In this document: in pieces, positions 11,920-60,906 of the stretch
How the letters are laid out: each line of letters begins with the position of its first letter
How positions within the stretch are numbered: position 1 is the first letter of the stretch
Origin: Methanobacteriota archaeon
Lineage (GTDB): Archaea > Thermoplasmatota > Poseidoniia > Poseidoniales > Poseidoniaceae
Assembly (NCBI GenBank): GCA_018649825.1
Contig: JABIHC010000176.1
Location: forward strand, 1 to 61,642
DNA: 61,642 nt
Direction: 5' to 3'
Notes under the pieces: generated by a model
Seen by the model: only the letters and a program-made list of their open reading frames with translations
Told to the model about the DNA's origin: nothing
Databases searched by the model: none
Position numbers and translations under genes: made by a program

Positions 11920-12420
11920 TCATGCCGTAGCCATACCAATAATAATTAATAATCCAAATCCAGCAATTACTAATACTGTCAAACCGATAATAATGATAGA
12001 AATAATACGTGCTATGTTGGCGTTACTTGCATCGGGATGACCGGGATATTGGTTGGTAACTTTTAATGCTTCATTAGCGACAATAAGGGCTGGAATTGCA
12101 AGACATATGCCACCGAAGAAAATTGAAACTATTGAAAGAACAAGAGCAACTGTTGCACTCGTTTGCGGGAAACCAGTAGTGAAAACTTGTTGGCCTCCTA
12201 CTGAAAATACCTGAGGATTTACTTGACCCATTTGTGGTTGTCCTGCGTAGGGCTGGCCCATTACTGGCTGGGCAAAACCAGTTTGTGTGGGTACTTGGCC
12301 GATAACAACTTGCTGGGGCTGGCCTTGTTTGGTTTGGTCCTCAATACTAGGTTGCACATAATGAACTGAAGAGCGATATTGTTTCAGCCTTTCCCTTGAT
12401 GCTTTGACAATTATTATCAC
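11920..12420 (-). CDS. Small membrane protein, Q/P-rich N-terminus plus two TM helices (DUF4190-like)
   Basis: A Gln/Pro-rich segment is followed by two hydrophobic helices (LVLSIVSIFFGGICLAIPALIV, IISIIIIGLTVLVIAGFGLLIII). The GTG start at 12420 is uncertain. Confidence 0.45.
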   Translation of the reverse strand: MIIIVKASRERLKQYRSSVHYVQPSIEDQTKQGQPQQVVIGQVPTQTGFAQPVMGQPYAGQPQMGQVNPQVFSVGGQQVFTTGFPQTSATVALVLSIVSIFFGGICLAIPALIVANEALKVTNQYPGHPDASNANIARIISIIIIGLTVLVIAGFGLLIIIGMATA

Positions 12421-13013: not shown

Positions 13014-13562
13014 ATGCGCCAGCGTAGTGTCATCTTGAGCCTCTTTTTTGTGGCAATAATGATGTCTTCCACAGTAGGTTGCATCGGGTTGACTCAAGTG
13101 CGAGAAGCCTTGGAAGGGATGCGCGGTGAACCAACACAAGGGCGCATTAGTGAAAGTTATAGCCTCAATCACACATTCACTGGTCTTTCAGCAGCACCAT
13201 TTTTTGCTTCAGAAGAAATTAAAGTAAATGATCGCGTTACTGAAATAAATATTTACTTTAGAGCAACAATGGATTTTGCCGATAACATACAAGTGGGTGA
13301 GGCGCGCTTTGTAAATGCAAAGTTATTGATGCCAGATGGAAGTGTATTTTGGGAAGAGGAAGCAACTAATTCAACAAGGCCCCAAGAAATTCGCACATAC
13401 CCGCCATTTGTAACTGGAATTTGGACTCTTGAAGTAGAAGCCAGAGGTTATGGTGCAGATTTAGTGGTAGTTGATTCATATGATGATTTCATGGTAAAGG
13501 TTACTGTTGAACAACAATGCACCTATTACCCTGTTGAAGACGATGTTTGTGCCTTTGATTAA
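13014..13562 (+). CDS. Hypothetical secreted protein or lipoprotein
   Basis: Has an N-terminal signal sequence with a lipobox-like TVGC (MRQRSVILSLFFVAIMMSSTVGCIG). The rest is hydrophilic and looks beta-rich. No recognisable catalytic motif. Confidence 0.5.
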   Translation: MRQRSVILSLFFVAIMMSSTVGCIGLTQVREALEGMRGEPTQGRISESYSLNHTFTGLSAAPFFASEEIKVNDRVTEINIYFRATMDFADNIQVGEARFVNAKLLMPDGSVFWEEEATNSTRPQEIRTYPPFVTGIWTLEVEARGYGADLVVVDSYDDFMVKVTVEQQCTYYPVEDDVCAFD

Positions 13563-13644
13563 TTGAAGCCAAGGTTGGTTGGCAAGTGATGTCAAATAGT
13601 TCTAATCAGTTGTGATTACTTCGGGTATTTCACAGTAGTTTTGA

Positions 13645-14880
13645 TTATACCAGCGACTCTGAACATGCATATCTGCGGCTACAAAAATTGCATTTGCCGG
13701 AACGTTCATGATTTCTCTTTGCTCCACCTTCAACCATTAGGCGTTGTATTTCTTTGACTGAGTTTTGAAGTTGTATTTTATTTACCTCATCCCATTCTAT
13801 TTGAAAAATTGATTCTTCGCCATATCTCAAAATACCAAAAGGAGGAACATTCCCTGTGCTATTTCCTACAAGATGCAAATAGGCCAACAACTGCATTATG
13901 TGGGAAAAATGAGGTTCCTTGGGAACCTTGCCGGTTTTTTGTTCAACAGGAATAAATTCTCCGTCAATTACTACGATTTGATCGGGTCGGCCTCGCAAAC
14001 CTATTGTCAAATCTTCAAGTAATCCGGCCGTCTTTGAATCATCGGAGTAGGCTATTTTTGCTTTATTGGCAAATCCAGTTAGATGACGAGCTTGTTCTGC
14101 TTTATTTATTGAAATAAGTACTCGTTGAAGACGCCATGAGGCAAAGAAAGTCCAAAATAATGCTACCATTAGCAAAATGTATCCTGCTTGAATTCTATCC
14201 TCTGCTCGACCTAAAGCAATACCATGAGCAGTAGTTAGTATTGAACCAAAGAAAAAGGCTGCTTCAGTTCGCCCACCCTCAGCCCAACCACCAATAAAGC
14301 CTGGTTTTTGAAAAATCGGTTCTACTAAATCATGATTGAATAATAGGATTTCTTTAGGAGGTTTAGATTTTGGTTCAGATATCCCCATCCACGAGCGCCA
14401 TGGAATTGTCGTCATTAGTAAACCAACGAAAAGCCAAACGATTCCGAGAATTACCAAGTACTTGGCAATAATGTATGGAGGCAATTTATCTTCAATATTG
14501 AGGAAAATGATGGCGTCAATGAGAAAAACAATAATTATTCCATACCACCATGACCATATCATTACTTCTTTTTGCGCATTCTGCCGATTAGCCTCATATT
14601 CCTCTACGACTTTATTAATTTCATCATGTGCCTTGATGCCCTCTTCAATTGCCTCACCAACACCTTTGACCCCTGAGCGCGACAATTGCCAAGACATTGG
14701 ACAATATCCGTGTTTTTCCAAATCACTTGCAGAGACATTTAGGGCCTCACCCTCCTCATTTCTCCAATAACCATCTTCGGATTGCTCGCCTTGAAATAAG
14801 ACATGTTTTGGATCACCATTTGAACCCTCATTGGTGCTAATAATAGCGCCATCAGTAGTGGTTGCGTCAGCATTTGTCAC
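13645..14880 (-). CDS. Cas4-family PD-(D/E)XK nuclease (4-Cys Fe-S type) interrupted by four predicted TM helices
   Basis: N-terminal VSASDLEKHGYCPMSW carries Cys60. The nuclease core is GRPDQIVVIDGEFIPVEQKTGK (D300, E313, K315), followed by the QxxxY-like HIMQLLAYLHL and the C-terminal CNFCSRRYAC. Four hydrophobic helices lie at about aa 106-252, between the first Cys and the core. Confidence 0.6.
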   Translation of the reverse strand: MTNADATTTDGAIISTNEGSNGDPKHVLFQGEQSEDGYWRNEEGEALNVSASDLEKHGYCPMSWQLSRSGVKGVGEAIEEGIKAHDEINKVVEEYEANRQNAQKEVMIWSWWYGIIIVFLIDAIIFLNIEDKLPPYIIAKYLVILGIVWLFVGLLMTTIPWRSWMGISEPKSKPPKEILLFNHDLVEPIFQKPGFIGGWAEGGRTEAAFFFGSILTTAHGIALGRAEDRIQAGYILLMVALFWTFFASWRLQRVLISINKAEQARHLTGFANKAKIAYSDDSKTAGLLEDLTIGLRGRPDQIVVIDGEFIPVEQKTGKVPKEPHFSHIMQLLAYLHLVGNSTGNVPPFGILRYGEESIFQIEWDEVNKIQLQNSVKEIQRLMVEGGAKRNHERSGKCNFCSRRYACSESLV

Positions 14881-15087
14881 TCCGATTCCTCCCCATGTGG
14901 CAAAGGCAAATTGCCCTCGCGGGAATAATACGATTAGGATTTACCCATCAATGTAACCCCGCCATAAGTCAATCAAAAATCTAATATTCTTCTTCAATAA
15001 TGCCGCGCTACTAGCGTTTTCTGCAGTTTTGAGTGGGCGAAGCGGTTATGAAGGGGGGGCTTGTGGGCCGGACGCTGAGGATTGCTA

Positions 15088-15696
15088 ATGACAGATATTG
15101 AAGCCCCACTCGTCTCTCTTGAGTTGTACGAAACCAATGCAGTAAACATTGGTACTCAACAGAAAAGCGCTGACATGAAGCGATTTATTTCTAAAATACG
15201 AGATGATGGACTTTACCTTCTTGACCTAAATCAGACCGATAGCCGCATTCGCACTATCGCCGATTTCCTCAACCGCTACCCGATGGACCGCATCATGGTT
15301 GTCAGTGCTCGACAGTATGGCCAACGCCCTGCAAGAAAGTTTGCAGAAGCAATTGGCGCAATTTCTGCGGTTGGTCGTTTCATCCCAGGAAGTCTAACCA
15401 ATCCTAAACTTTACACCTACATTGAACCAGAGGTTCTATTCGTCACCGACCCTGCTGCTGACCAGCAAGCTTTGACTGAAGCGGTTAACACTGGCCTACC
15501 AATTGTTGGTATTTGTGATGCCAACAATAACTTGCGCAATGTTGACTTAGCATTACCTGCAAATAATAAGGGACGACGCTCCCTTGCTCTAATCTATTGG
15601 ATTCTAGCCCGCGAAGTTCTAAAGAGCCGCGGGGAAATGACTGATGAGGCTTGGGCTGAAGCACAAGACCTTGACGAATGGGAATCTACTTTCTAA
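15088..15696 (+). CDS. rps2: 30S ribosomal protein uS2 (archaeal/eukaryotic SA type)
   Basis: Collinear with archaeal S2: GTQQKSADMKRFISKIRDDGLYLLDLNQT, PIVGICDANNNLRNVDLALPANNKGRRSLALIYW. ATG 15088 is preceded by GAGG; the ORF opens at TTG 15082. Confidence 0.9.
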   Translation: MTDIEAPLVSLELYETNAVNIGTQQKSADMKRFISKIRDDGLYLLDLNQTDSRIRTIADFLNRYPMDRIMVVSARQYGQRPARKFAEAIGAISAVGRFIPGSLTNPKLYTYIEPEVLFVTDPAADQQALTEAVNTGLPIVGICDANNNLRNVDLALPANNKGRRSLALIYWILAREVLKSRGEMTDEAWAEAQDLDEWESTF

Positions 15697-15828
15697 GTAG
15701 CCTTCAAAATATTGGGCCGCTTTAGGGCGAACAAATCATTGTTCACATTGCGATTGGTTTTCATTGTGTTTTTTCGCGCCAGTTGTAGCACTTAGAATTG
15801 CTAGGTTAGTCAACAACGAGGGTTGATT

Positions 15829-16857
15829 TTATTTCAATAGGGATTTATATTCATTTTGAAGATATTTGTGAACTGAGGCCGCTAATGCTTCGGGACTTCT
15901 ATCGCTCATCATTGCCTTTCTAGCCTCTCGTGCCCCTGGCAATCCTTTGGTAAATGAGACTGCATGGCGCATTAACCACTTGGCTTGGAATCCAACGGTT
16001 TCCTTACACAACTCAATATATCTATCCCAAGCCCATGAGCGAACAAGAAAATCTCTCTCAATTTGTTCGGCGCAGTCCCAAATGTTGGAAGAAATATCTT
16101 TTTGCCATGGCGGAGGTGATTCAACCCAATCCAAATCTTGCTTGATTTGGTTAAAAATCATTGGCCGCCCAATTGCGCCGCGGCCAATCATTAATCCTGC
16201 GGCGCCAGTAATCTCAAGACATTGTGCGGCATTTTTTGCATTTATAATATCCCCATTTGCTATGACCGGAATCGACACACCCCTAACTACTTCTGCAATT
16301 TCTTGCCAATTTGCTTCACCTGAATATCCTTGTTTGAGAGTTCTACCATGAACACATAATTGCGTGACACCTACGCCTTCCAAACGCTGGCAAATTTCAA
16401 CTACATTGTTGGCGCCTTTTCCTGTTCCAAGACGAAGCTTTGCTGAAATTGGCACCTCACTTGCATTCACACAAGCCTCTGCCATTTCCACTAGATCGTC
16501 TGGCATTCCCATTAGGGCCGCACCTGCGCAAGTACGAGTTACCTTAGTTGCTGGGCAACCGAAATTGAGGTCAATAATATCGGCTTTCCCTTGTAGAAGT
16601 TGCACTGTTTCCACCATTTCATCCTTCACGCCACCAAAAATTTGAGGAATAAATGGCTTTTCTCTGTCATCGCTTTCAAGCCTAACCCACGAATCAGCAA
16701 CATCACGTGAGATGGCTGCCGAAGAAGTAAATTCAGTTATTGTGAAATCAGCACCACATTCCCTTGCCAATAATCGAAAAGGGAGGTCTGTCACACCAGA
16801 CATCGGAGCCAAGTAAAGAGGTACTTTAGTCAACATTCTCACATCACCACCCATCAT
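15829..16857 (-). CDS. tRNA-dihydrouridine synthase (Dus family)
   Basis: LAPMSGVTDLPFRLL, IDLNFGCP and HGRT blocks indicate a TIM-barrel FMN enzyme. Length is typical for the family. Confidence 0.85.
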   Translation of the reverse strand: MMGGDVRMLTKVPLYLAPMSGVTDLPFRLLARECGADFTITEFTSSAAISRDVADSWVRLESDDREKPFIPQIFGGVKDEMVETVQLLQGKADIIDLNFGCPATKVTRTCAGAALMGMPDDLVEMAEACVNASEVPISAKLRLGTGKGANNVVEICQRLEGVGVTQLCVHGRTLKQGYSGEANWQEIAEVVRGVSIPVIANGDIINAKNAAQCLEITGAAGLMIGRGAIGRPMIFNQIKQDLDWVESPPPWQKDISSNIWDCAEQIERDFLVRSWAWDRYIELCKETVGFQAKWLMRHAVSFTKGLPGAREARKAMMSDRSPEALAASVHKYLQNEYKSLLK

Positions 16858-16878
16858 CGGACATTCTGAAATAACAAT

Positions 16879-18024
16879 TTATACCTTTTCCATTGACTCT
16901 TCTAATTGCTCGGCAACACGACGAAGTCGGCGTAATACGCGGTCCAAACGAGACTTACATGACTCAGCACAAATGAGGGGCGAAGTGCCAACCAACCTGT
17001 AACCTAAGGGCAGCCTCCCGCCCAATAAGTTAAGAAGTAGCATTTGTTGTTTAAGTTCTAGTTCTGATAATGACTTTTCTACAAGTTCGGGAGTTAATTT
17101 TCCTTTATTTAAGGCCTTGATTATCACATTTATTTCCCTTTCAGGCACTTGCCGATTAAGACCACCTTTCAACATCAACCAATCTTCACCACGTTTACGA
17201 TATTGGGATTCGAGGGCAGCCCAAATAGTGATGGAAAGGCGGTCGGTTCGAGGTACTCGTTCAACGATTCCGCTTGCACGAAAACGGTCGAAAATTCGGG
17301 TGAGGCGAGGCTTCGTTGCGCCGGTCATTTCTACTGCTTCATCAATTGAAAGAGGAGGACCTCTTTGGAGGAGAGTTTTGAATAGAGTTACTGGGACTGA
17401 GGTTGAATTCATTGATTTTGCAGGCCTATCGCCTAATAATCCAAGGTCAGCCATCCATGCTGATATTTCACACACACCTGCTACCGGAGGTAATGGAGAG
17501 GGTTCTGCAATCCATAACCGTAGAGGCAAGGGGGTTTGATTTGCCGAAGTAGGTATGTTCAATTGAATAGATGATTCATTTCGTTGCCACCATTTTTCAA
17601 GTAAAGACATTTGTAAATCTAAAACAATTCTCGCTTCTGCTGAAAATATTTTTATTGCTGCACTGAGTGATGCGCCGCGTAAAAAATGTCTCCTCCAACC
17701 ATCGCCTTCGCTTTTGCTGGCTATTAATCTACATTCATTGAGGCGGACAATATGGTGATGAAGACTTGGTGCCGCTAAACCTAATTCTTTTGCAAGTATT
17801 GATGCATCAACTCCTGAATTTGGATTTGCAAGGAAATGGTCCCGCAGCAAAACAACAACTGGTTGTTGTGAGTCACCAAACGAATGTTCTTCACCGCGGC
17901 GCCGTATCAAGCCAAAAGTTGCTACTAGCCAATTGATGAGTTGGTCTCTATCCCGGCCGGTCGGCAAAGGATGCTCCTCAATCCGGACTCTAAACATAGT
18001 TCGTCGGCAATGCCGACCGGTCAT
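16879..18024 (-). CDS. Hypothetical protein with two winged-helix-like segments (putative DNA-binding)
   Basis: ILAKELGLAAPSLHHHIVRLNECRLI and IDEAVEMTGATKPRLTRIFDRFRASGIVERV resemble wHTH recognition helices. No closer family was recognised. Confidence 0.4.
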   Translation of the reverse strand: MTGRHCRRTMFRVRIEEHPLPTGRDRDQLINWLVATFGLIRRRGEEHSFGDSQQPVVVLLRDHFLANPNSGVDASILAKELGLAAPSLHHHIVRLNECRLIASKSEGDGWRRHFLRGASLSAAIKIFSAEARIVLDLQMSLLEKWWQRNESSIQLNIPTSANQTPLPLRLWIAEPSPLPPVAGVCEISAWMADLGLLGDRPAKSMNSTSVPVTLFKTLLQRGPPLSIDEAVEMTGATKPRLTRIFDRFRASGIVERVPRTDRLSITIWAALESQYRKRGEDWLMLKGGLNRQVPEREINVIIKALNKGKLTPELVEKSLSELELKQQMLLLNLLGGRLPLGYRLVGTSPLICAESCKSRLDRVLRRLRRVAEQLEESMEKV

Positions 18025-18160
18025 AAGCCTGCGGTTAATAGTGGGCTAATAATTGACGTTTAATGCTGTAAACGAAATACAGGAAATTAATAATTCACTT
18101 GAATGTGAAACGAAACTGATTAGGAAGGCAAAACGGTGAGCGAGTGAAGGGGTGGAGAAA

Positions 18161-18775
18161 TTATTGCAAATGTTCAGCAATATCAATAATATTTGGCTTC
18201 ATTATTCCACGACGGCGAAGGACCTTAATTGCCGAATGAACTGTTGCTTTTGAACGCCCCAATTCACGAGCAAGAGCTGCTTGTGAGCGGGGGATTCCGT
18301 ACTCACGAATATGGTCAATGACTGCGCGTTGGGCTGCCGAAAGCCCGACTTCTAAGCGTGCTGCGGCTCGCTCAGGGTCAGATAATGGTCCACCCAATAC
18401 CTCAACATCATTAACAGAACCAGCAAAATAACAGGTCCTACCATTAACTCGCACAACTGTAATTGATTGGCGTGCTTGAAGAACATCAAGATGGTGTCGT
18501 AGTGAACCATTTGCTGCGCCGAGAGATCTCTGTAATTCACGGTAGCAAAGACCTGGGTGATCAATTAATTTCTCTATTACAGCACAACGCAAAGGATGGT
18601 TGTCAATTGCTTCATCAGAGCCAGATGAAATTATTCCCGTAGAACCAAATATTCCCACAAGAGAACCGGCTACTCCGGTAACTCCACCAACAACTCCGGC
18701 TAAGCCGGCGGCTAACCAAGGCCGCTGACGTACCCACTGTTGCAAGAGTGCCATTGAATACCAAGTATTAGGCAT
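18161..18775 (-). CDS. Membrane-anchored protein with two wHTH domains (ArsR/MarR-like)
   Basis: An N-terminal Gly-rich hydrophobic helix (PWLAAGLAGVVGGVTGVAGSLVGIFG) is followed by YRELQRSLGAANGSLRHHLDVLQ and QAALARELGRSKATVHSAIKVLRRRGI. Confidence 0.5.
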   Translation of the reverse strand: MPNTWYSMALLQQWVRQRPWLAAGLAGVVGGVTGVAGSLVGIFGSTGIISSGSDEAIDNHPLRCAVIEKLIDHPGLCYRELQRSLGAANGSLRHHLDVLQARQSITVVRVNGRTCYFAGSVNDVEVLGGPLSDPERAAARLEVGLSAAQRAVIDHIREYGIPRSQAALARELGRSKATVHSAIKVLRRRGIMKPNIIDIAEHLQ

Positions 18776-19118: not shown

Positions 19119-21875
19119 TTAGGAATACTTGGCCCCACAAGTGCCACATTCATCTGCATCCATTGCTAAGTCAGCACCGCATGCACCACATTCACCCATT
19201 TCCGCCTTCTTTCGACGGGCGGCTTTACGAGGTTTCTTTACAGACAATTCGTCATCTTCAAAGGAGAAATCCATTGCATCTTCTGGTAGTTCATTTCCAA
19301 CAAGCCCGCGGTCTGCTTGAACTAGACCAATATTGACCTTGTCGCCTTCTCTTACCCCATCTTCACCTGTTATCTCATAGTATTTCTCGCGAATTTCAGC
19401 ATCACTTGCAGACAATTTTTTACCGTCATCTGTGCCACCCTGAAGATGAATTACTTTATCCTTGCCCGATAAGATTTCATCAACTGTTTCGCCAACGAAA
19501 GTGTCTCCACCGGCGCTAAGGATCCCCTCTGCCAAATCTTCCTCGCCTTCCAATATCTCAGCATTTTCTGCATCCCAACGGGCTTCCATTTCAGCCATTT
19601 CTGCTTCAGCAGCAGTGATTTGCTCGTCCCACTCGTCTCCGAGTTGTTCGGCATCATATCCAAACTCAGTGACTTCGGCGTCAAAGTCAGCAGAACCGGT
19701 AACAATAGCATCCTCATCCTCTTCTTCATCTTCATCTTCACTTTCTTCAACCACAGGTATTGCCTTTTCATGACGCTCTCTAGTTTCATAATGGCTACTG
19801 ATATCTTGCTCAGTTCCACAAAAGGAACAATGAGATATCATGCTAGGAATATTTTCACCGCAAGTTTCACAATCATGGAATCTTCTTCGAGCCTTTTTAA
19901 GATTAAAGGAACAATATGGGCACTCCGTTTCATCGCCCACTAATTCTCCATCACAAGCCGGACAATAATCGTAAATACCGCGCTCAATTTCTTCATCGGG
20001 TTCACGAGTAAGAATAAAGGCTGCAACTGAAATTATTACCAACCCAAATACAATAATTCCAAGAATTAATACTAGGCCTATCCCCGAACTAACTTCATCA
20101 TTTCCGTCGCCACCGAGGGCTAGTACAGACCATGTGCGCGAATGAGTTTGTGCAGAGGAGTCAAGTGCCACTATCGAAAGACCATAGTCGCCATTTGTTT
20201 CAATTGTGAAAATGCAAGTAATAGATGTTTCCTCGCCAATTTGGGAGATGCTGACATTTGCCTGATGCAATTCATCCCCATTGCCATCGCGACAAGAGAA
20301 TGTTTCCTCGCCAATTCCACTACTTACTAGGCTAATTGTGTATGCGTAAGTCTTACTTTCACCCAAGGGTGGGTCAACCACAAAGCCATCAGCAGAACCG
20401 GAAGTGAGGGTGCCGGTATTCGCCAAGAATGTCAGACTAAGGTCGGAGGTAACAACTATTTCGCCAGAAGAAATGCTATCCGTGGCATCTGCATCATAAG
20501 AAGTTGAATGAGCGACCCAAGTCGCAACGAAATGTGCATCATGTGGATTTTGTGCGGTTATTAGAGTAACATCCCAATTCATTGAGCCATAGGCATCGAT
20601 ATTGATGATTTCTGAAGTCAAGTTTTGCCCTTCCCAAGAATAATCAATTCTACCATTTACCGCTATGTCTCCTGTATTTTGCATCACAACTGTCCAAGTT
20701 ACCGATTCGCCTGCGGGCCTTGAAGTTGAAGATGGGTGTGCAATAGGGTCTAGAGCTACATTAGGAATTGGCCTAATTGTCATCATTCCAGTTGTTTGGT
20801 CGTTTGTAGTATCGGATTGTGTGAGTATTGAGAACGGATCTATTGTAGCCTGAAGTGCATATTCACCTGCATCCAACATGGCTACTTGTTGACTGTTTAA
20901 TTGAAATTGAAATGTTGTACTTGTATTTGCAGGATCTATTGCTATTTCAAGTGGAGAAATTGTTGGCGAAGGGCCTGATGTCATTACCTGGAAGCCTATT
21001 TGAATAAGAGTGGTTTGACTCAAATATTGACCCGAAACTGAACCAGAAATTGTCCATGGCCCCAACAAACTTTCTGCTGGTGAGGTAATAGTTAGAGTTG
21101 AGGGGAAAGCAAAATCAGGGTCGGGCAATACATTAACCGAAGTAGACAACATACCACTACCTTCTGCTACTTCGTTAACTACATCATAAGCATCTGGAAC
21201 GGCAATTACCGACCAATTGCCTGCATTTGCAAAAGTAAGGGTTGTATTTGCCCAAGCGGTTTCACCGGGATTTAGTGCAGGTACATTCACATCAACAGTT
21301 GAATCACTATCGCCTTCAATTCCAATTTGCGTAGTACTGATGTCAGAAGCAACAGTTCCGGAATTTGTTATCAAAGCAGCAACATTGCCAACGTCACCAT
21401 TGCGCAATCCGGAAGGAGTTACATCGAGTTGGCTAACTTCCAAATTAGCCAAACCCACAACAGTGAATTCCTTGTAAAATTGTAAAGGAGTATCCCCATT
21501 ATACTCCACACTAACCCACACTTTACGCTGACCTTCAGCTAATCCACTCCAAACAGTATTCACGGTAGCAAAATCATTACCTGAAATTGTGACAACATTT
21601 GATTCCAACAACTTGCTTGAAGAAATACCATCTTTATAGAAGGAATACTGAACATCATTTGCCGAAACTGAATTATTATTGAAAAGAGTGAGGGAAATAG
21701 ATACTGAACCACCCATTGCCGGTTCAGAGGGAGAAAGCCCGATGCTGGAAGGACCTGCTTCAATCCCCCCTGTATCATCGGCAGAAACGCTCAACGGCAC
21801 CAAGGATAACGGAGCAAGAAGGAGCAACATCAGCAGGGGCCAAGCGGCTAAGCGGCGTCTCATCAACCCCCTCAC
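19119..21875 (-). CDS. Large surface protein: signal peptide, repeated beta-sandwich (CARDB-like) ectodomain, one TM, acidic cytoplasmic tail with three zinc ribbons
   Basis: Signal peptide RRRLAAWPLLMLLLLAPLSLVPLSVSA and TM helix GIGLVLILGIIVFGLVIISVAAFILT. The tail motifs are CPACDGELVGDETECPYC, CETCGENIPSMISHCSFCG and the terminal CGACGADLAMDADECGTCG. Confidence 0.7.
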   Translation of the reverse strand: MRGLMRRRLAAWPLLMLLLLAPLSLVPLSVSADDTGGIEAGPSSIGLSPSEPAMGGSVSISLTLFNNNSVSANDVQYSFYKDGISSSKLLESNVVTISGNDFATVNTVWSGLAEGQRKVWVSVEYNGDTPLQFYKEFTVVGLANLEVSQLDVTPSGLRNGDVGNVAALITNSGTVASDISTTQIGIEGDSDSTVDVNVPALNPGETAWANTTLTFANAGNWSVIAVPDAYDVVNEVAEGSGMLSTSVNVLPDPDFAFPSTLTITSPAESLLGPWTISGSVSGQYLSQTTLIQIGFQVMTSGPSPTISPLEIAIDPANTSTTFQFQLNSQQVAMLDAGEYALQATIDPFSILTQSDTTNDQTTGMMTIRPIPNVALDPIAHPSSTSRPAGESVTWTVVMQNTGDIAVNGRIDYSWEGQNLTSEIINIDAYGSMNWDVTLITAQNPHDAHFVATWVAHSTSYDADATDSISSGEIVVTSDLSLTFLANTGTLTSGSADGFVVDPPLGESKTYAYTISLVSSGIGEETFSCRDGNGDELHQANVSISQIGEETSITCIFTIETNGDYGLSIVALDSSAQTHSRTWSVLALGGDGNDEVSSGIGLVLILGIIVFGLVIISVAAFILTREPDEEIERGIYDYCPACDGELVGDETECPYCSFNLKKARRRFHDCETCGENIPSMISHCSFCGTEQDISSHYETRERHEKAIPVVEESEDEDEEEDEDAIVTGSADFDAEVTEFGYDAEQLGDEWDEQITAAEAEMAEMEARWDAENAEILEGEEDLAEGILSAGGDTFVGETVDEILSGKDKVIHLQGGTDDGKKLSASDAEIREKYYEITGEDGVREGDKVNIGLVQADRGLVGNELPEDAMDFSFEDDELSVKKPRKAARRKKAEMGECGACGADLAMDADECGTCGAKYS

Positions 21876-26205: not shown

Positions 26206-26949
26206 TTAGGCGAAAAGATTAGCGAGGTCGGTATCTTCCTCGTCATCGTCATCGTCATCATCAAACTCCTCCTCTTGAACAGGAGTCTCTAGCTCAGCAG
26301 GTTCACTACTTTCTTCTTCATTGGCTGCATCTTCAGAAGGTGTGTCGGGTGTGTCGGGTGTGTCAGAAGCATCAGAAGCATCAGTGGGAGTATCGCCAGT
26401 TGGCTCGGCATCAGCGAAAAGCCCATCTTCGTCATCATCATCATCACCATCTGCAAAGAGGTCATCAACATCATCATCATCAACATCATCATCAACTTCT
26501 TCTGCTACTTCTTCCCTTCCGGTTGGCTTAGAACCGGGGGCAGCGAAAAGCCCATCTTCATCATCAAAGACATCACGCTGATTTAGTCCAAAAATATCTA
26601 CAATTTCAGGAAGCATTCCCTTCCTAGAGAGATAGAGTGCTTGAGTCTTATTATATCGATGCTTTACATCTGCTTTTGCATCTTGGAAATCCCATGGCCA
26701 AACGATAATGAGGTCACCTTCACGAACCCATTGACGCCTTCGCATCTTTCCAGGGATGCGGGCAAGTCGAGTTTGTCCATCTGCACAAACAACATTTACG
26801 CGGCGGCCGCCGAGGATTTTATCTGCGATAGCAAACATCTCATTGACCTTACGATTAGGCATCTTTACGCGAATTTTGTCAGCGCCTCCGCCACCCATTA
26901 ATTGAGCGAGGTACTCCTCATCCACTTTCTCTTCACGACGGCGAGCCAT
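26206..26949 (-). CDS. eif1a: Translation initiation factor aIF-1A with a long acidic C-terminal tail
   Basis: The S1/OB core reads VNVVCADGQTRLARIPGKMRRRQWVREGDLIIVWPWDFQDAKADVKHRY. ATG 26949 (MARRREEK) is the likely start; the ORF opens at TTG 26976. About 130 residues after the core are D/E-rich. Confidence 0.9.
   Translation of the reverse strand: MARRREEKVDEEYLAQLMGGGGADKIRVKMPNRKVNEMFAIADKILGGRRVNVVCADGQTRLARIPGKMRRRQWVREGDLIIVWPWDFQDAKADVKHRYNKTQALYLSRKGMLPEIVDIFGLNQRDVFDDEDGLFAAPGSKPTGREEVAEEVDDDVDDDDVDDLFADGDDDDDEDGLFADAEPTGDTPTDASDASDTPDTPDTPSEDAANEEESSEPAELETPVQEEEFDDDDDDDEEDTDLANLFA
26339..26383. repeat. Short in-frame tandem repeats (3 x 9 nt GGTGTGTCG/A, then 2 x 9 nt GAAGCATCA) inside the aIF-1A tail
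   Basis: Read directly from the sequence. On the minus strand they encode DASDAS-DTPDTPDTP. Confidence 0.8.
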
Positions 26950-27008
26950 GTTATTCAAGCCTCGGCGGCGGCTCAATATACTTGAAGTCGTTGGTTTTTA
27001 CAAGCAAT

Positions 27009-39082: not shown

Positions 39083-40636
39083 TCATTTGCCGCCAAATAA
39101 TGAACGGAAGAAAGTAACAACTTTGTTTAAGGGCTTTACTGCCTCCTTTCTTGTAGCGGATTGGCCTTTGGTTTGAGGGTTTTTTGTCGACCCTAAAGAT
39201 GCTTTTTCAGAGGCTTTTTGCTTACTTTTGCGCAAGATAATATGGCCATCTGCAATTAAGTCGCGGAGTGGGCATTCTTTACGTAAATTTAGAAACCAAA
39301 CCAAACGTTCTGGTTTGGTGAAAGCCGCGGTCAATTTTGAAGAAGTAATTTTCTTGTACTCATTGCCAATAAGGGCCATATCTGCAGGGAATTTCATTTT
39401 GCATAGCATGTCCAATGCCGCATCGACAGATTTGGGTAATTCTGCACGTTGACAGGATAATTGGGCATTGCGTTTGTTTCCAAGGTGATCCTTGAAACGA
39501 AGCAAAGTCATTCTCTTTACAGAGGGTTTTGCTTTAGCCACACTACTAGATTTTGCAGAATGGGTTTGCTTTCTGGCTTTATGTGGCTTGCTGGGTTTCC
39601 CTCCCGTTTTTCCTTTTGACTCATCCTTTGACTTGGTTTGATTCAATCTAGAGGCCGGTTCGCTTTTTTGTACAGTGGTAATTCTATTACCCTTTTTCCC
39701 AAATTCAACTAATTCTCCCAATAATAACGTTAATTGCTGATAAAAGGCTATACTAATCGGTATTTGCGCCGCTTTCATTATTTCTTTTCTCGAAGCATAA
39801 TTGCTTCTCATGGTTTTATTTGCACCATCTACAACAATCTGGCCTAATTTTGTCAAATTGCAAGGACTACGATCTAGTTGTTGCATTATCACATGCCGAA
39901 TTGTATTACGAACCGCGATAATATCCTGGTTAATCCCTTCATCTAATTTACTGAAAATTTTTGCGACCTCCGGGGTTTTACCACGATTGTTGCTTTGGGC
40001 CGAGATTTTTTCCCCTCCTTGTGCAGAAGCTTTACCACCTTGTTTTCCTTTTTTGCCGCCCCCACCATCTGATTTACTGGCTTGCTTGCCCACCTTTTTG
40101 CCACCTTGGCGACTTTTTTGGCTTGCTTGAGTTGGAGGTTTGATTTGTCCGGTTTTTGCGGCCTGGGCGGGCGCATCAGAAATGTCAAAATCTGGGTTTG
40201 GCATGAACATATCTCCAACGAACATGTATGAAATTACCTTTTCATCACGCCAAGAATAGAATTCTTCTTTCCCACCATCATGTTCTTCAGCATGATTTTT
40301 CATCCGGTCATTTGTGATCACATAGGCTCCAGTTTGTAGCGCATAGGCTATCCAATAATGGTCATCGTGGTCTTGGCTTGGAGTTGCAACAACACAACCC
40401 TCATTGCATAAAGATTCGAGCAATTTATGGTCATCAACTCCACGCTTTCCGCCTGCACTTAGATAATGGCGCGGAACGAATGCTCTGACCTGCCAACCTA
40501 ATTGTTGAAAGTATCGAATTGTTATCTCAATACCCTTGGCCGATGCCGGCCAACTATTTCCTGAATGAGCCATTCCTAAGTTTGGTCCATCGATTACTAT
40601 TTCTTTTGCCTTCGGCGTATCTTTCTTGGTACTCAA
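39083..40636 (-). CDS. Zc3h12a/Regnase-type NYN (PIN-like) ribonuclease fused to a K/G/Q-rich linker and two LOTUS/OST-HTH-like modules
   Basis: The N-terminus (IVIDGPNLGMAHSG...VRAFVPRHY...DDHYWIAYALQTGAYVITNDRMKNH...VISYMFVGDMFMPNPDF) is collinear with the Regnase catalytic domain (VVIDGSNVAMSHG...TVFVP.WR...DDRFIV.LA...G.IVSND.YRDL...LL.YSFV.DKFMPPDDP), as recalled from memory. The C-terminal assignments are tentative. Confidence 0.65.
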   Translation of the reverse strand: MSTKKDTPKAKEIVIDGPNLGMAHSGNSWPASAKGIEITIRYFQQLGWQVRAFVPRHYLSAGGKRGVDDHKLLESLCNEGCVVATPSQDHDDHYWIAYALQTGAYVITNDRMKNHAEEHDGGKEEFYSWRDEKVISYMFVGDMFMPNPDFDISDAPAQAAKTGQIKPPTQASQKSRQGGKKVGKQASKSDGGGGKKGKQGGKASAQGGEKISAQSNNRGKTPEVAKIFSKLDEGINQDIIAVRNTIRHVIMQQLDRSPCNLTKLGQIVVDGANKTMRSNYASRKEIMKAAQIPISIAFYQQLTLLLGELVEFGKKGNRITTVQKSEPASRLNQTKSKDESKGKTGGKPSKPHKARKQTHSAKSSSVAKAKPSVKRMTLLRFKDHLGNKRNAQLSCQRAELPKSVDAALDMLCKMKFPADMALIGNEYKKITSSKLTAAFTKPERLVWFLNLRKECPLRDLIADGHIILRKSKQKASEKASLGSTKNPQTKGQSATRKEAVKPLNKVVTFFRSLFGGK

Positions 40637-40821: not shown

Positions 40822-43800
40822 TTATTTACGGAAGTTATTATTCAATAGAATAAGCATAGCGACCCACATTGCACGATTGTCAAGTTCATCGGTGAAAGTC
40901 TCGGCTTTGAGGCTCATTTCAAGGTCACCGATGGGCCTAGCAATACTTAGAGTTCCATATACATCTTCACCTTCAACGGCCGTAAATGCCCACTCAGTAG
41001 GAGATAACAGTTTTGAAAGTGGATCGAGTTTTGAAAGTGGGTGCATCGGGTAGTAATTACGAAGGAAGGCACGAACTTTTTGAGTCCTTGTAACTGAAAT
41101 CCATGGAGTTCCATCAATTTGCAAGATTTGCCATGATGCTCGGTTCCACGAGAATAATCGCTTGAAAAATGAGGTTCTAATTTCTTTGATTACACAAAAT
41201 GGTGAATTTGAAGCCGAATCCATAACATCAAAAATTCGCTTCTTGAAATTACGATTTATCAAGTGCAATTGTGGTTTAGCACGTGTGTCGTCTGCATATA
41301 CCATGATGTCTTGCTTACTTTTGCCAATGTTTCGTACTGCATAGCCAAGGCCGCCAGCCATACCAAAACTAACTGCATTATCTAAATTTGAGTCTCGAAC
41401 ACTGATGCAAGTTTCAGAACCAACCTTCTTCAAATTCATTGTCACATCACTTATCTTGAATCTCTTTACTCCGGTTTTGGTGACGAGAAGGGGAGTTAGT
41501 TCATTGGAATAATTAGGCTTGGCACTTTTCTTTGCTTGCCAACTACGGCGACGCGGTTCAACATATACATATGAAATAATCAATAATGCGAGAATTGCTA
41601 TGATTGAAAGCCCAGTGGTTGAACCAAGAATTGCCAACCCAAAGTCGTCAGGACTTGGCTCCCCTTGTACATGGAGTTCAGCATTCTTGCGCCCAACCAA
41701 CCCTATGTCAGTAGGTTCAGCAGAAAATGTGAAGTCAAAATCATCGGGGATTTCAGAACCGTGCGGTGATTTGACCACCGCACGAACAAGTACATATTCA
41801 CCTACTTGTAAATCACAAATAACTTCTAAACCATCATCTGGATTACAAATATGAGCCGGATCGTCTGTCTCAATTGTTACAATCCAACCGCGAAGGCTTT
41901 CACTTGTAAAAATACGTACTTCACTTGGTGTGTTTCCAAGATTACTCACATTTGCCTCGAATACCGCTTTGTTTGGATAGTAAACATCTTGAGTTTCTTC
42001 ACTAATTATTTCAAAGCCGATTTTACGAATACTTTGCACTTGGATATTGAAGGAAGTGGTAGAAGATAATGCTGAATTATGGCTGCTTGTGGCAATGACA
42101 TCAAAAGTACTTCCCTCTCCATTTGCGGCACCACCTGATATGGAGATATGTAAGTTGATGGCTATCGTGAATACCCGAGCCTCATGAGTATTGTTATCTC
42201 CATTTGCGTCAATCCAGTTTTTTGCGCCATTTTCAGCGCAGGATTCATCGCACCGAGATGAATAGTCCCACAAATGAGTTATAGAATTTGAGTCAATTTC
42301 AAAACGATGAGTCTCAAGGTTCCACACGCCATATGCCTTTGGCACACCGAAAGTTCCGCCTATGGAGTTCAAATCTTCCCACACATTGGTATTGGGATTT
42401 AGAATCTCAGCACTGCGGGTTCCCATGCCTTCAAGCCCTACAAGATTGATCAAGGCATTGTCACCTAAATCACCGGTATTATTAATCCATAGCGGTATCA
42501 CAAACTCCCCGCCAGGGGCTACTGTAAGGGAAACAGGACATCCATTAGATATTAGGCAACTCCAATCAACAATCATGTAATCTTCAAGCCCATCCATACA
42601 TTCACGGTCATCACAATTGGCAAGAGTCACATCCATTGAATAATTGCGATTTGAAAGAATTGCTTTAAATTCCTTTTCTCTTTGATTGTCTGGAATTCCA
42701 TCTTCATCATCATCACCTGTGTATGAATCATCCTTGTTGATGATTCGCACAATTAATTTAGACATATCCAGTTCCTCCTCCCCTTCAATATTGACTACAA
42801 GGGTTACTGTTGCTTCAGAGAATGCCGCAACATCTACTTCAATCACTGGAGTCTCGCCAAACAAGAAATGGGTATTCCACTCTGGCTGAGCCGTCTGACT
42901 GGCAACAATGAAACGGAATGTATCTTCGACATTTCCATCATTTATCAACAAAATTGGAAAATGTACATCTTGGCTGCTACGGCCAGTTTGGTCACCAACG
43001 TCTAAATTACCAACATCCCAATTATGGACTGGTTTGACAGTAATTGTCAAATTCATCGTATCATATGGCTGGCCACCAGAGGTGGCGCCTACTGAAATGG
43101 AAAGGATGATTGCATCGTCTGCTAATGCATAAAATGGTGCAGTAACAACTAATTCAATACTTTCTGTACGATCAGTACCATGCCTACTTCCAACAGATAC
43201 TGTAGAAGAAGACAAACTAACGCCCCACCCAGTTGGTGGAGCACTTGTGGAGATTTTGAGTGAGTCCGGTCCATTACCTTGGTTTGAAGCAGTTACTGTA
43301 ACTGAACCATTTCCTCCTGGTTCAACATTGGATATTGTAGTGCTAGAGAGGGAAACAGTTGCGCCGTGACTTTGACCGACAAGTATGCGCAATTGAACTT
43401 CGCAAAGAAGAGGCCCGGAAGAGCCGTCATGGCCCTCAATATTCACAATATGTTCAGAACCAGCCTGAACAGAATCATCTGGGCTTACTGTTATCTCAAA
43501 GGTCAACGGATTGGTACCCGTTCCTCCGTGACCGAGGTTGTGCAAACCCATATTTTCTATTTCTACCCAGTTAGAACGCGCACCGGTTTTTGCAGTTTTT
43601 ATACTATAGTCCGTATTGCCAGTATTTGAAAAAGTAACCGTTGTTGTCTCTGAATCATCTGGATTCACCGACATTGTCGCTGCACTAATCGCCACATCAC
43701 AAGAATGTATTTCAGGGATTGTTAAATCCAATAATTGGTCATCAGATGCGTTCTGAGTTGGGTCATTTTGAACTTGCGCGTGGAGTTCCCAGCAATACTT

Positions 43801-49461: not shown

Positions 49462-49481
49462 AAGAATTATCTCCAATATTA

Positions 49482-50072
49482 TCAAAGCAACCACATGCTT
49501 GTCGGTGCCGTATCAACAAACCAATCGCTAGCATAGTTGCCAACTGTATGGTCATATCTTTGTGAATGTGAAGAACCTTTTCCGTCAGTCCAATCAAGAA
49601 TAACTGAATATTGATACTCATCCCAAACCGTATGACCTTGAATAACCAATTCTAAATCATCTCCAGTTACACTACTATGAGCGGGTAGAATATCGCCACT
49701 CCAACTAGTACTGTCAACCAATTCACCTTCAACATCAGAAAAACTAATTGTTACCCTTACATCAGTGACTGCCCTACTTCCATCATTATCCAATGATACG
49801 AGGAATACATGAGTGCCGCCGCGCTGATAATATCTGCTTTCAACAGACATTGAGTCTCTCGGTATAGCCCAATGCCATGATGCTGCAACAAGCAAAAATA
49901 GTACTAAGAGGGTACAACTGGCGGCAATTACTCTACCGAGAGTGACTTGATGCCCTATTTCCAATAATTTTTCAGCAACTTCATGCGCTATCTTAAATTC
50001 TTCTTCGCTGACATCAATCAACTCATCCTCATCAGAAGTAGTTGAAAGGATTATTTGCTCATCATCTTTCAT
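49482..50072 (-). CDS. Small type-II membrane protein (acidic cytoplasmic N-terminus, one TM, about 120-aa external beta-rich domain)
   Basis: The TM helix is VIAASCTLLVLFLLVAASW. ATG 50072 shares 1 nt with the stop of the 1,594-aa gene and is preceded by GGAGGTGG. The stop lies 20 nt before the subtilase ATG. Confidence 0.6.
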   Translation of the reverse strand: MKDDEQIILSTTSDEDELIDVSEEEFKIAHEVAEKLLEIGHQVTLGRVIAASCTLLVLFLLVAASWHWAIPRDSMSVESRYYQRGGTHVFLVSLDNDGSRAVTDVRVTISFSDVEGELVDSTSWSGDILPAHSSVTGDDLELVIQGHTVWDEYQYSVILDWTDGKGSSHSQRYDHTVGNYASDWFVDTAPTSMWLL

Positions 50073-54751: not shown

Positions 54752-54830
54752 GCACCCCGTAGGGGTGCAGGTATGCTTTAGGACATTGGGTCTATTGGAC
54801 TCACCACATCGAGGTTTGAAGTGAAGGAAA

Positions 54831-60753: not shown

Positions 60754-60906
60754 GCTATCACCTGCTCTTTGAGCATCCCGCCGACCGACCATCCCTTCAT
60801 AACCTTGCCGCGCGGTTTTCCAAACGACAAATGAGGAGATAGGGGCCTAATTACCTGTGAAAACACAGGAGGGTGAGTAGGTGGAAGTGGGAGGTTTTCT
60901 TGAGGT

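Follow-up and report, generated by a model that had tools for sequence, protein, structure and literature searches.

We found that a gene of a marine group II (MGII) archaeon likely encodes an integral-membrane nuclease of the Cas4/RecB-like PD-(D/E)XK family, outside any CRISPR system. The gene is in a stretch of 61,642 nucleotides, here called the window, that comprises positions 1 to 61,642 of contig JABIHC010000176.1 (assembly GCA_018649825.1) from a member of the Poseidoniaceae. The catalytic domain of the protein would be split. An N-terminal piece would carry the first cysteine of an iron-sulfur (Fe-S) cluster and a histidine, and a C-terminal piece would carry the D, ExK and QxxxY motifs and three cysteines. 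Carried on two stalk helices beneath the membrane, the two pieces would come together again as a single Cas4 fold, with both termini in the cytoplasm. By analogy to Cas4, Dna2, AddB and Exo5, the protein would bind a [4Fe-4S] cluster and a divalent metal, and would cleave single-stranded DNA or DNA ends, with 5'-to-3' exonuclease or flap nuclease activity the most likely.

The 411-codon open reading frame (ORF) runs without interruption on the minus strand, and an ATG at 14894-14896, upstream of the GTG start codon, is out of frame. The gene and its parts are listed here with the evidence for each (pLDDT, predicted local distance difference test).

13645..14880, minus strand: whole gene for the putative membrane-embedded Cas4-family nuclease, 411 amino acids, GTG start, stop codon included (ORF list; Pfam, NCBIfam and PADLOC Cas4 matches; homologue clusters).
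14888..14892, minus strand: Shine-Dalgarno-like GGAGG, 7 nucleotides 5' of the GTG start (read from the sequence).
14791..14880, minus strand: N-terminal tail, residues 1-30, variable and probably disordered (no conservation in the alignment; pLDDT <50 for residues 1-20).
14566..14790, minus strand: N-terminal nuclease piece, residues 31-105, with S50-A-S-D53, Y59-C60-P61 (C60 being the putative first Fe-S cysteine), W64, G81 and H85, closed by the cytoplasmic part of a long stalk helix, 76-128 (residues invariant in 83 diverse relatives; alignment to the N-termini of the solved Cas4 proteins 8d3l and 4r5q; pLDDT 93-97 for residues 31-70).
14407..14565, minus strand: predicted transmembrane (TM) hairpin 1, residues 106-158, with TM1 at ~107-128, a short outside loop (EDKLPP) and TM2 at ~135-158; it contains a W109-SWW belt, D122 within TM1 and W149, and P160-W-R follows directly (hydropathy; AlphaFold helices 76-128 and 135-158; conservation; hairpin homology).
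14275..14406, minus strand: cytoplasmic TM2-TM3 loop, residues 159-202, rich in lysine and arginine and predicted to be disordered; it ends in the MGII-specific invariant F195-x-G-G-W199..G203..E206 (pLDDT <50 for residues 171-202; mean of 5.6 Lys+Arg across the MGII class).
14128..14274, minus strand: predicted transmembrane hairpin 2, residues 203-251, with TM3 at ~203-224, a short outside loop (RAED) and TM4 at ~229-251; it contains E206, H219, Q231-A-G and W243, the last invariant family-wide (hydropathy; AlphaFold helices 203-224 and 229-268; conservation; hhalign).
13645..14127, minus strand: C-terminal nuclease piece, residues 252-411 and stop codon, with the stalk helix to 268 and then the PD-(D/E)XK core in the order G297-R-P-D300, E313-x-K315, Q330...Y334, R389-N-H391 and C397/C400/C406 (Pfam and PADLOC alignments; invariant columns; pLDDT 85-98; Foldseek matches to Cas4, Dna2 and MGME1).

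The protein has the motifs and conserved residues of Cas4 nucleases

A first-pass annotation, made by a model from the sequence alone, had listed the hallmarks of a Cas4 nuclease in this protein, and we found every one of them: SASDL (residues 50-54), YCP with C60, GRPD with D300, VEQK with E313 and K315, QLLAY with Q330 and Y334, and C397-NF-C400-SRRYA-C406. The protein has no cysteines other than the four in these motifs (C60, C397, C400 and C406). All four were invariant in an alignment of 83 diverse relatives that are 27-92% identical (the alignment was also used for the second AlphaFold run described below).

Profile searches matched the protein to Cas4. The Pfam family Cas_Cas4 (PF01930) matched with E=1.1e-7 (32.5 bits; cutoff 22.7), aligning residues 289-406 to positions 47-158 of the 160 in the profile. 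PDDEXK_1 (PF12705) matched within the same residues (E=1.7e-7; 31.9 bits; cutoff 22). Cas4 models in PADLOC matched with E-values down to 3.6e-20, and a PHROG family annotated 'CRISPR/Cas system associated' matched with E=1.7e-13. The score against TIGR00372 (60.4 bits) was just below the equivalog cutoff of 65. Scans with Pfam and NCBIfam found no helicase domain in the protein, which has only 411 residues.

It was the C-terminal two thirds of the PF01930 profile that aligned unless the insert was cut out. A full-length phmmer search against the sequences in PDB gave only a spurious match to Timeless; Cas4 was reached after removal of the insert and use of a family profile. We cut the hydrophobic region from 16 diverse family members and searched the resulting spliced profile against the sequences of solved structures. 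The match to the type I-C Cas4 (8d3l; E=4e-6) was nearly end to end, with profile positions 3-210 aligned to residues 6-202, and took in the N-terminal cysteine and the histidine of the G..H motif. Pcal_0546 Cas4 (4r5q; E=1.9e-6) matched in two stretches, with the family's 'sasdlekygYCP...G..H' aligned to 'VSPSIINDFEYCP...RGRILH'. The match to SSO0001 Cas4 (4ic1; E=1.5e-7) stopped short of the G..H region. The first-pass annotation had let its assignment stand or fall with profile matches to Cas4 or PD-(D/E)XK families, and matches were obtained with Pfam, NCBIfam, PADLOC, PHROG and the spliced profile. By sequence and motifs, the family is assigned to the Cas4 superfamily.

Residues well beyond the cysteines were invariant in the 83 relatives. 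In and before the insert these were S50, Y59, C60, W64, G81, H85, W149 and W243. In the C-terminal piece they were G297, P299, D300, P311, K315, G317, P320, P323, S326, H327, Q330, Y334, Y353, R389, H391, K396, C397, C400, S401, R402 and C406. E313 was conserved in at least 90% of the relatives. As judged from this alignment, the pattern of invariance is that of an active enzyme. D300, E313, K315, Q330 and Y334 align with the corresponding residues of the solved Cas4 proteins 4ic1, 4r5q and 8d3l, and H85 aligns with those of 8d3l and 4r5q.

In SSO0001 the metal ion is bound by a histidine upstream of the D/E/K triad (PMC13621843). H85 is probably the equivalent of this histidine, because it aligns with the conserved G..H histidine of 8d3l and 4r5q. 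The first-pass annotation had placed the insert between Cys60 and the catalytic core. That order holds, but the insert starts after the helix that bears the invariant H85, and so not simply after Cys60. The active site would thus draw on residues from either side of the insert. If H85 is a ligand, the insert would part the first Fe-S ligand and one active-site metal ligand from the remainder of the site.

The insert is predicted to consist of transmembrane hairpins

Relative to the Cas4 profile, the protein contains an insert of ~190 residues, with two hairpins of ~150 residues inside it, between the helix that bears the histidine and the beta-sheet core. CRISPR Cas4 has no such insert. Mean Kyte-Doolittle hydropathy exceeded 1.7 in three segments of the protein (105-128, 135-160 and 231-250). 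The third of the four helices (203-224) is only moderately hydrophobic in the single protein; it gave a clear peak in the family-averaged profile and was a confident helix in both AlphaFold models. Together these results bear out the four-helix insert (residues 106-252) of the first-pass annotation, with helices at ~107-128, 135-158, 203-224 and 229-251.

We grouped the relatives by the length of the insert and averaged hydropathy within each class.

Insert of 100-160 residues: 2 transmembrane peaks.
Insert of 190-215 residues: 4 transmembrane peaks.
Insert of 216-260 residues (MGII): 4 transmembrane peaks.
Insert of 330-460 residues: 8 transmembrane peaks.

One extra weak peak in two of the classes is the core helix of the QxxxY motif. 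Odd numbers of helices (1, 3 or 7) counted in single sequences were treated as threshold artefacts: in insert length these sequences matched the 2-, 4- and 8-helix classes, and the odd numbers were gone in the class averages. In these averages, the odd-numbered loops were short (8-17 residues) with a mean of 0.6-2.0 Lys+Arg, and the even-numbered loops and flanks had 3.5-10 Lys+Arg. By the positive-inside rule, this indicates that the N-terminus, the C-terminus and the long loops are all cytoplasmic. The cytoplasm is the expected location of an Fe-S DNA nuclease.

Two further proposals of the first-pass annotation were upheld. Both halves of the nuclease are predicted to be on one side of the membrane, the cytoplasmic side, as indicated by the class-averaged helix numbers (2, 4, 4 and 8, never odd) and the positive-inside charge bias. 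In addition, the hydrophobic segments appear to be transmembrane helices and not a buried soluble domain, as indicated by the AlphaFold helices, the TM1-TM2 and TM3-TM4 loops that are poor in lysine and arginine, and the variable copy number of the hairpins.

Homology links the two-helix hairpins across the 8-, 4- and 2-helix classes. Profile-profile comparisons with hhalign gave probabilities of 87-99% and scores of 28-88; the maxima in 72 controls with reversed sequences were 11% and 16.3. The best match of MGII hairpin 1 was the third hairpin of the 8-TM class (92%), and that of MGII hairpin 2 was hairpin 1 of the 4-TM class (89%). MGII hairpins 1 and 2 have diverged, and were not detectably similar to each other in profile-profile comparison. 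From these alignments, we conclude that the insert grew by duplication of one hairpin unit, now present in 1, 2 or 4 copies. Duplication of the hairpin as a unit would keep the number of helices even, as a split catalytic domain needs.

Some residues are invariant specifically in the MGII proteins: the W109-SWW belt, D122 in TM1, P160-W-R, F195-x-GGW..G..E206 before TM3, H219, and Q231-A-G. The sequence F-x-G-G-W-x2-G-G-R-x-E (window 14263-14298; residues 195-206) lies directly before TM3 in the loop that AlphaFold predicts to be disordered. The polar or charged residues within membrane helices (D122 in TM1; E206 and H219 in TM3) are conserved in MGII and absent from the other classes.

It could be argued that the protein is a non-catalytic membrane scaffold or sensor that has kept the nuclease fold, either sensing redox state or iron through the Fe-S cluster or serving as a DNA-binding tether. 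The conserved intramembrane residues (D122, E206 and H219) and the invariant GGW..GG..E loop of the MGII proteins would fit such a role. In addition, the Fe-S cluster of the solo-Cas4 of Methanosarcina mazei is dispensable for catalysis, indicating that clusters in this family can serve non-catalytic roles (PMC12501428). Nonetheless, H85, D300, E313, K315, Q330 and Y334 are invariant or nearly so among the 83 relatives, some of them only 27% identical. Such conservation marks a working active site, and we consider loss of catalysis very unlikely.

Predicted structure

A first AlphaFold run with 23 close homologues gave a pLDDT of 62.7 and weak Foldseek matches, and was superseded by a run with the 83 sequences. 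The second model had a mean pLDDT of 82.5 and a predicted TM-score (pTM) of 0.74. In this model, pLDDT was 93-97 for residues 31-70, 85-98 for the C-terminal core, and 77-93 for the four helices of the insert. The hydrophobic segments formed long helices (76-128, 135-158, 203-224 and 229-268). Two of these are 22-24 residues in length. The other two, the first and the last, are longer and extend as cytoplasmic stalks that join the membrane part to the nuclease pieces. The TM2-TM3 loop was disordered from 171 to 202.

A Foldseek search of PDB with the model found Cas4 8d3l (E=1.1e-4; TM-score 0.51 on the target) and the Geobacter Cas4-Cas1 structures 7mi4 and 7mi5 (root-mean-square deviation 2.4-2.5 over 133-138 columns). 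Further matches were to Dna2, MGME1, AdnAB and Exo5. Among predicted viral structures, soluble Cas4-like and PD-(D/E)XK exonucleases matched the model. Several of the alignments to the viral Cas4-like proteins span from the N-terminal piece to the C-terminus, with the insert as a gap.

The family is found in Thermoplasmatota

Homologues of the protein were numerous. A first search found >1,000 clusters, and the best 120 were all 382-447 amino acids long and 49-92% identical. Where names were given, they were 'Dna2/Cas4 domain-containing protein [Candidatus Poseidoniaceae archaeon]' or 'CRISPR-associated exonuclease Cas4'. When 1.84 billion representative proteins were searched exhaustively with a profile, 1,205 matched at E<=1e-3 and 101 at E<=1e-30. 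Among the best 150 of these matches there were size classes besides the MGII type of ~400 amino acids (~260-285, ~320-365 and ~495-600 amino acids). All of these further classes have kept the YCP cysteine (at residues 13-26), the C-terminal CxxCx5C motif, and hydrophobic segments between them.

Named members of the family are from uncultured Thermoplasmata, Methanomassiliicoccales, Ca. Saliniplasma and Ca. Natronoplasma, that is, from Thermoplasmatota; none of the named relatives is from a cultured organism. Scanning one genome per GTDB species for two sequence motifs turned up relatives in at least 378 species genomes. The two motifs do not fit MGII sequences, so these species are additional to MGII. 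The best 80 of the 378 are nearly all labelled as Thermoplasmatota or as broader euryarchaeal metagenome-assembled genomes. No relative was found in 2.9 million viral contigs. As far as seen in these searches, the family appears to be restricted to Thermoplasmatota. One carrier (locus L040; JBKHKA010000001.1) is labelled 'Candidatus Aenigmatarchaeota archaeon'. Its protein is typical of the 4-TM Thermoplasmata class and is 43% identical to P0153, and the label may reflect mislabelling, mis-binning or horizontal transfer.

This distribution bears on whether the gene is real. A mis-assembled or mis-called fusion of a membrane protein gene into a Cas4 gene, or a buried soluble domain mistaken for a membrane anchor, might be suspected from the moderate hydropathy of segment 203-224 in the single protein and the low confidence of the first AlphaFold model. 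We give this explanation almost no credence. It is refuted by the breadth of independent occurrences: all 120 of the MGII clusters listed (of >1,000, from many independent assemblies) share the length range, and relatives are present in the 378 further species genomes. The ORF is uninterrupted as well, and the even helix numbers, the positive-inside pattern, the homology of the hairpins and the confident second model all favor real transmembrane hairpins.

The gene is not in a CRISPR locus

The window is an ordinary chromosomal stretch. It encodes a glycosyltransferase, an acyl-CoA synthetase, ABC transporters, a TetR regulator, beta-oxidation enzymes and an HxlR regulator; uS2, Dus, HTH regulators, surface proteins, and KH, RIO and eIF1A proteins; and an 11-gene Nuo-type complex, an NYN RNase, a subtilase and rpl15e. 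We found no CRISPR-like repeats or arrays in the 61.6-kb window, no cas domains in the ~45 window ORFs scanned, and no match to Rfam in the window. A crude k-mer scan found no CRISPR-like arrays in 97 related loci (~1.05 Mb). The five k-mer matches in that scan were all in protein-coding regions, and inspection of the two that are not in known repeat-protein genes showed tandem repeats. No cas families were found in the gene tables or cluster representatives of the related loci. PADLOC found no defence system beyond matches to Cas4/DruK-type nuclease domains, and the small neighbours had no match. Thus, the description of the gene as a solo Cas4, with no array or cas genes in the window, was borne out and extends to the 97 related loci.

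These results are hard to reconcile with a genuine CRISPR-associated Cas4 that functions in spacer acquisition, with cas1 and cas2 elsewhere in the genome. Support for that explanation comes from the source annotations ('CRISPR-associated exonuclease Cas4'), the TIGR00372 score and the strong matches to PADLOC Cas4 models. However, the family falls short of a CRISPR-associated Cas4 both in the TIGR00372 score, which is under the equivalog cutoff, and in genomic association: no cas genes or arrays were found in the window or the related loci, and the gene has a conserved location that is not a cas locus. In addition, a membrane anchor is hard to square with the soluble Cas4-Cas1-Cas2 complex, judging from 8d3l and 7mi4. 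A function in CRISPR adaptation is highly improbable and already largely refuted.

The MGII gene has a conserved chromosomal location

Two genes flank the nuclease gene in the window.

13014..13562, plus strand: predicted lipoprotein of 182 amino acids, convergent neighbour (signal peptide and Gly-Cys (GC) lipobox-like motif; conserved tail-to-tail in loci L001-L007).
15082..15696, plus strand: ribosomal protein uS2 gene, divergent neighbour (Pfam Ribosomal_S2; same arrangement in L001-L007; shared 201-bp intergenic region).

In MGII contigs the gene is always divergent from uS2-Dus and always convergent with the gene for a lipoprotein of ~184 amino acids with no known domain. It is also near the genes for Dus, RIO kinase and eIF1A. 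The MGII lipoprotein had no Pfam or PADLOC match, and we treat it as context; its link to the nuclease is positional.

The block that contains the lipoprotein, the nuclease, uS2, Dus, a 381-residue HTH protein and an HTH_HVO_0163_N protein (window 13014-18775) is inverted relative to the other MGII contigs, as compared with L001 and L004, and stays intact through the inversion. In the other MGII contigs the lipoprotein gene adjoins the gene for a surface protein of 918/922 amino acids with CARDB and double-zinc-ribbon domains; in the window that gene is at 19119-21875.

It is possible that the protein is a housekeeping nuclease of genome maintenance that is tethered to the membrane. Its substrates would be 5' flaps or DNA ends in repair, in replication termination or when membrane-attached DNA is segregated, and its function would be unrelated to DNA in transit across the membrane. 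The gene is common among MGII contigs and has the same housekeeping neighbours in each. It is outside defence islands, has no viral copies, and has no PADLOC system beyond the Cas4 domain models. Furthermore, soluble solo-Cas4 proteins and the related Dna2, Exo5 and MGME1, all three of which were among the fold matches, are enzymes of DNA maintenance. In contrast, genes of repair or replication are not conserved beside the family gene in any of its branches, and the variable size of the membrane anchor has no explanation in a repair role. The operon partners in relatives (below) are surface-exposed proteins with a lamin-tail domain (LTD), including a nuclease-like PLD protein, and are hard to tie to chromosome maintenance. 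On balance we consider a housekeeping role of this kind somewhat unlikely.

Some relatives outside MGII appear to be co-transcribed with LTD proteins

We called and clustered ORFs in 70 loci of the 4-helix Thermoplasmata class. Directly upstream of the family gene and on the same strand, 19 of the 70 loci have a gene for a 762-residue protein (e.g., L042:21-2309, and 18 other loci). The gap between the two genes is -38 to +21 nucleotides where the ORF call allows, and the partner was within 300 nucleotides in 15 of the 56 loci that have at least 2.5 kb of upstream DNA. The 762-residue protein has an LTD, two PLD-HKD domains (PLDc_2; E=8.6e-43), a PKD domain and a C-terminal TM anchor. The closest solved relatives of its PLD region, all of them weak matches, are mostly of nuclease type: Zucchini/MitoPLD, Nuc, the poxvirus nicking-joining enzyme and the 5'-3' exonuclease PLD3. 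The best single match to the region, 7e0m, is deposited only as a phospholipase. The domain matches suggest that the LTD-PLD-PKD protein may be an archaeal extracellular nuclease.

Of five 8-TM loci, four have an abutting upstream gene whose product is a giant protein, with 994-2,098 amino acids.

L008:1646-5989: giant LTD protein.
L009:3017-6001: giant LTD protein.
L095:727-7023: giant protein.
L096:1669-7068: giant protein.

Most of the giant proteins have N-terminal HhH, zinc-ribbon and TPR modules. The two that were checked for TM helices (L008 and L009) have a TM helix, a very large extracellular region that ends in an LTD, and a second TM helix. In the L008 protein there are also long GLTN repeat runs. 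A KaiC-like ATPase and an HTH_HVO_0163_N regulator precede the giant protein in L008 and L096. In two non-MGII branches, then, genes for LTD partners appear to be co-transcribed with the family gene.

Other neighbours of the non-MGII genes are on the opposite strand. Downstream in the 4-helix class there is a two-TM protein of ~105 amino acids with the motif ISHRIFSS..FTTFEEEMLKM (at least 37 of 69 loci) and a lipoprotein of ~150 amino acids (at least 44 of 68 loci), and the same pair also flanks the 8-helix class. Loci with the convergent pair are L014-L093 (e.g., L014:5434-5751 and L014:5744-6190), L008:7659-8440, L009, L010, L095 and L096. Across them the two-TM protein has ~105-119 amino acids, the motif ISHRIFSS..FT(T/P)FEEEMLKM and an acidic coiled-coil tail, and the lipoprotein has ~140-150 amino acids. 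In the 8-TM class the pair is followed by a third small protein, a Lys/Ala-rich coiled-coil of 89-98 amino acids. Neither the small two-TM protein nor the non-MGII lipoprotein had a Pfam or PADLOC match.

Two apparent links between the MGII and non-MGII neighbourhoods were rejected. Homology between the MGII lipoprotein and the one that flanks the Thermoplasmata genes was not supported (hhalign 9%, signal peptide only). A BLAST match between the cytoplasmic tail of the MGII 918-residue CARDB/double-zinc-ribbon protein and the HhH/zinc-ribbon N-terminus of the giant partner (E=0.006) was too weak to use.

Proximity to ribosomal genes recurs across the family. The gene is next to rps2 in MGII, rpl15e is directly before the family gene in one 8-TM genome (L094:6386-8791), and in L095 and L096 a ribosomal-protein cluster (L7Ae, S28e and L24e) is 1.5-3 kb away. 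The rpl15e region of the window is at 60151-60792. This proximity may be coincidence or may reflect neighbourhoods of high expression.

Other features of the window

Several ORFs of the window are unusual in themselves. Pfam gave nothing at E<=1e-5 for two very large ORFs of 1,265 and 1,594 amino acids (40822-44619 and 50072-54856, minus strand). These ORFs flank a 1,623-residue subtilase/CARDB protein (44623-49494) and a 938-residue PKD protein (54831-57647), and the region as a whole is probably a surface-protein cluster. The eIF-1A homologue at 26206-26976 has 256 amino acids, about twice the usual size, and carries a long acidic extension whose coding sequence is made up of imperfect repeats rich in GAT/GAC (26232-26576, tandem and direct). 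A 517-residue protein (39083-40636) has an N-terminal Zc3h12a-like NYN ribonuclease domain (E=8e-25) and a weak match to PRORP (protein-only RNase P). A 166-residue protein (11920-12420) has a Gln/Pro-rich N-terminus and a two-TM, DUF4190-like C-terminus; its gene is between a beta-oxidation gene and the HxlR gene and is absent from the same position in L001 and L004.

Possible function of the family

If the protein is a membrane-anchored nuclease, it would process DNA at the cytoplasmic face of the membrane. The DNA could be entering the cell (uptake or salvage, or interception of invading DNA) or could be chromosomal DNA attached to the membrane. Judging from genomic context, we tentatively favor incoming DNA, while stopping short of calling it probable. 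We favor it because in two non-MGII branches the gene appears to be co-transcribed with genes for membrane-anchored LTD proteins, one of them a Nuc/Zucchini/PLD3-like phosphodiesterase. Both DNA-degradation loci and ExeM, an extracellular nuclease, are known to include LTDs (PMC6085458, PMC8289736). This occurrence, together with the LTD partners, hints at a function in handling DNA at the envelope. The operon partners of the non-MGII relatives thereby lend indirect support to the suggestion in the first-pass annotation that the protein may act at the membrane on incoming DNA.

Several points weigh against this view of the protein. Fe-S binding, nuclease activity and topology are predictions for every member of the family, and packing of C60 on C397, C400 and C406 is suggested by the high pLDDT and pTM and by homology only. 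In MGII the gene stands without an LTD or PLD partner, is apparently monocistronic, and is passed on vertically and in synteny like a housekeeping gene, a pattern that suits genome maintenance no less than it suits uptake or defence. Operon partners are confined to subsets of two non-MGII branches, and the one 2-TM locus that we examined has an unrelated context. Lastly, the role of LTDs is unsettled, membrane targeting having been proposed, and the PLD-like partner may act as a phospholipase rather than as a nuclease.

A more elaborate version of a role with incoming DNA can be envisaged, and its chances seem low to us. The family would be the cytoplasmic-face nuclease of an unrecognised archaeal membrane apparatus that takes up or intercepts DNA. 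The hairpins would oligomerise to form or gate a conduit, and the surface LTD proteins, among them a Nuc/PLD3-like nuclease in some lineages, would capture and cut DNA outside the cell. Some Cas4 proteins form toroids. If such a conduit exists, it would be a route by which MGII archaea use dissolved DNA or defend against viruses, in organisms that appear to lack CRISPR loci nearby.

Comparison to known nucleases

The family has the PD-(D/E)XK/RecB-like fold in common with the Cas4 proteins of CRISPR adaptation (SSO0001, 4IC1; Pcal_0546, 4R5Q; type I-C, 8D3L; Geobacter Cas4-Cas1, 7MI4), and the same order of motifs (N-terminal Cys, G..H, GxPD, ExK, QxxxY, CxxCx5C). Those proteins sit in a soluble Cas1-Cas2 complex, whereas the TM family is predicted to be membrane-bound and lacks cas1, cas2 or an array in its vicinity.

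The iron-staple nuclease domains of AddB, Dna2, Exo5 and MGME1 have a related fold by Foldseek and in common with the TM family an expected action on 5' single-stranded ends. In AddB and Dna2 the first cluster cysteine is far upstream of the other three, so that the cluster pins distant parts of the chain. Unlike Dna2 and AddB, the TM family has no helicase domain, and the stretch between its cysteines would hold a lipid-embedded helical bundle besides the nuclease core.

A nuclease held at the membrane is also known from EndA/NucA of competent bacteria, ExeM, the nuclease domain of ComEC, and membrane-coupled defence nucleases (Zorya). The likeness to these is one of functional analogy only. 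The LTD-nuclease architecture of ExeM does resemble the operon link to LTD proteins in relatives of the TM family. The envelope nucleases have unrelated folds (beta-beta-alpha-Me, EEP and metallo-beta-lactamase) and face outward or are recruited to the membrane. In contrast, the catalytic domain of the TM family is predicted to face the cytoplasm and to be itself split by the anchor.

Also among the closest known proteins are the solo-Cas4 proteins, which, like the TM family, are encoded by archaeal Cas4-family genes outside cas loci and have four conserved cysteines (M. mazei Go1, PMC12501428; the class of Hudaiberdiev et al. 2017, PMC5704561). The described solo-Cas4 proteins are soluble, the M. 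mazei enzyme being a soluble complex of ~318 kDa (PMC12501428), whereas the TM family is predicted to consist of integral membrane proteins. The 2017 phylogenomic survey of Cas4 makes no mention of transmembrane segments (PMC5704561). A 2026 paper on JCVI-syn3.0 concerns a soluble Cas4-DEDD fusion (PMC13621843). In agreement with the first-pass annotation, we found no description of a membrane-embedded or transmembrane Cas4 in the literature covered, which did not include subscription-only papers. We also found no precedent in the Cas4/RecB family for a lipid-embedded hairpin module of variable copy number that splits the catalytic domain. The enzyme family itself is familiar; what appears to be undescribed is a split architecture integral to the membrane, an anchor built of hairpin repeats, and a distribution across the phylum outside CRISPR.

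Our results have implications for annotation and for the biology of the Thermoplasmatota. The database label 'CRISPR-associated Cas4' on a conserved gene of this kind misleads surveys of CRISPR content. The predicted protein would have a catalytic domain, a metal site and an Fe-S cluster all assembled from two segments of the chain around a lipid-embedded hairpin module of variable copy number. It would also be a clean example of how insertion and duplication hairpin by hairpin keeps both halves of a domain on one side of the membrane. If the family does process DNA at the membrane, it would provide a molecular handle on DNA uptake, DNA salvage or virus defence independent of CRISPR in Thermoplasmatota.

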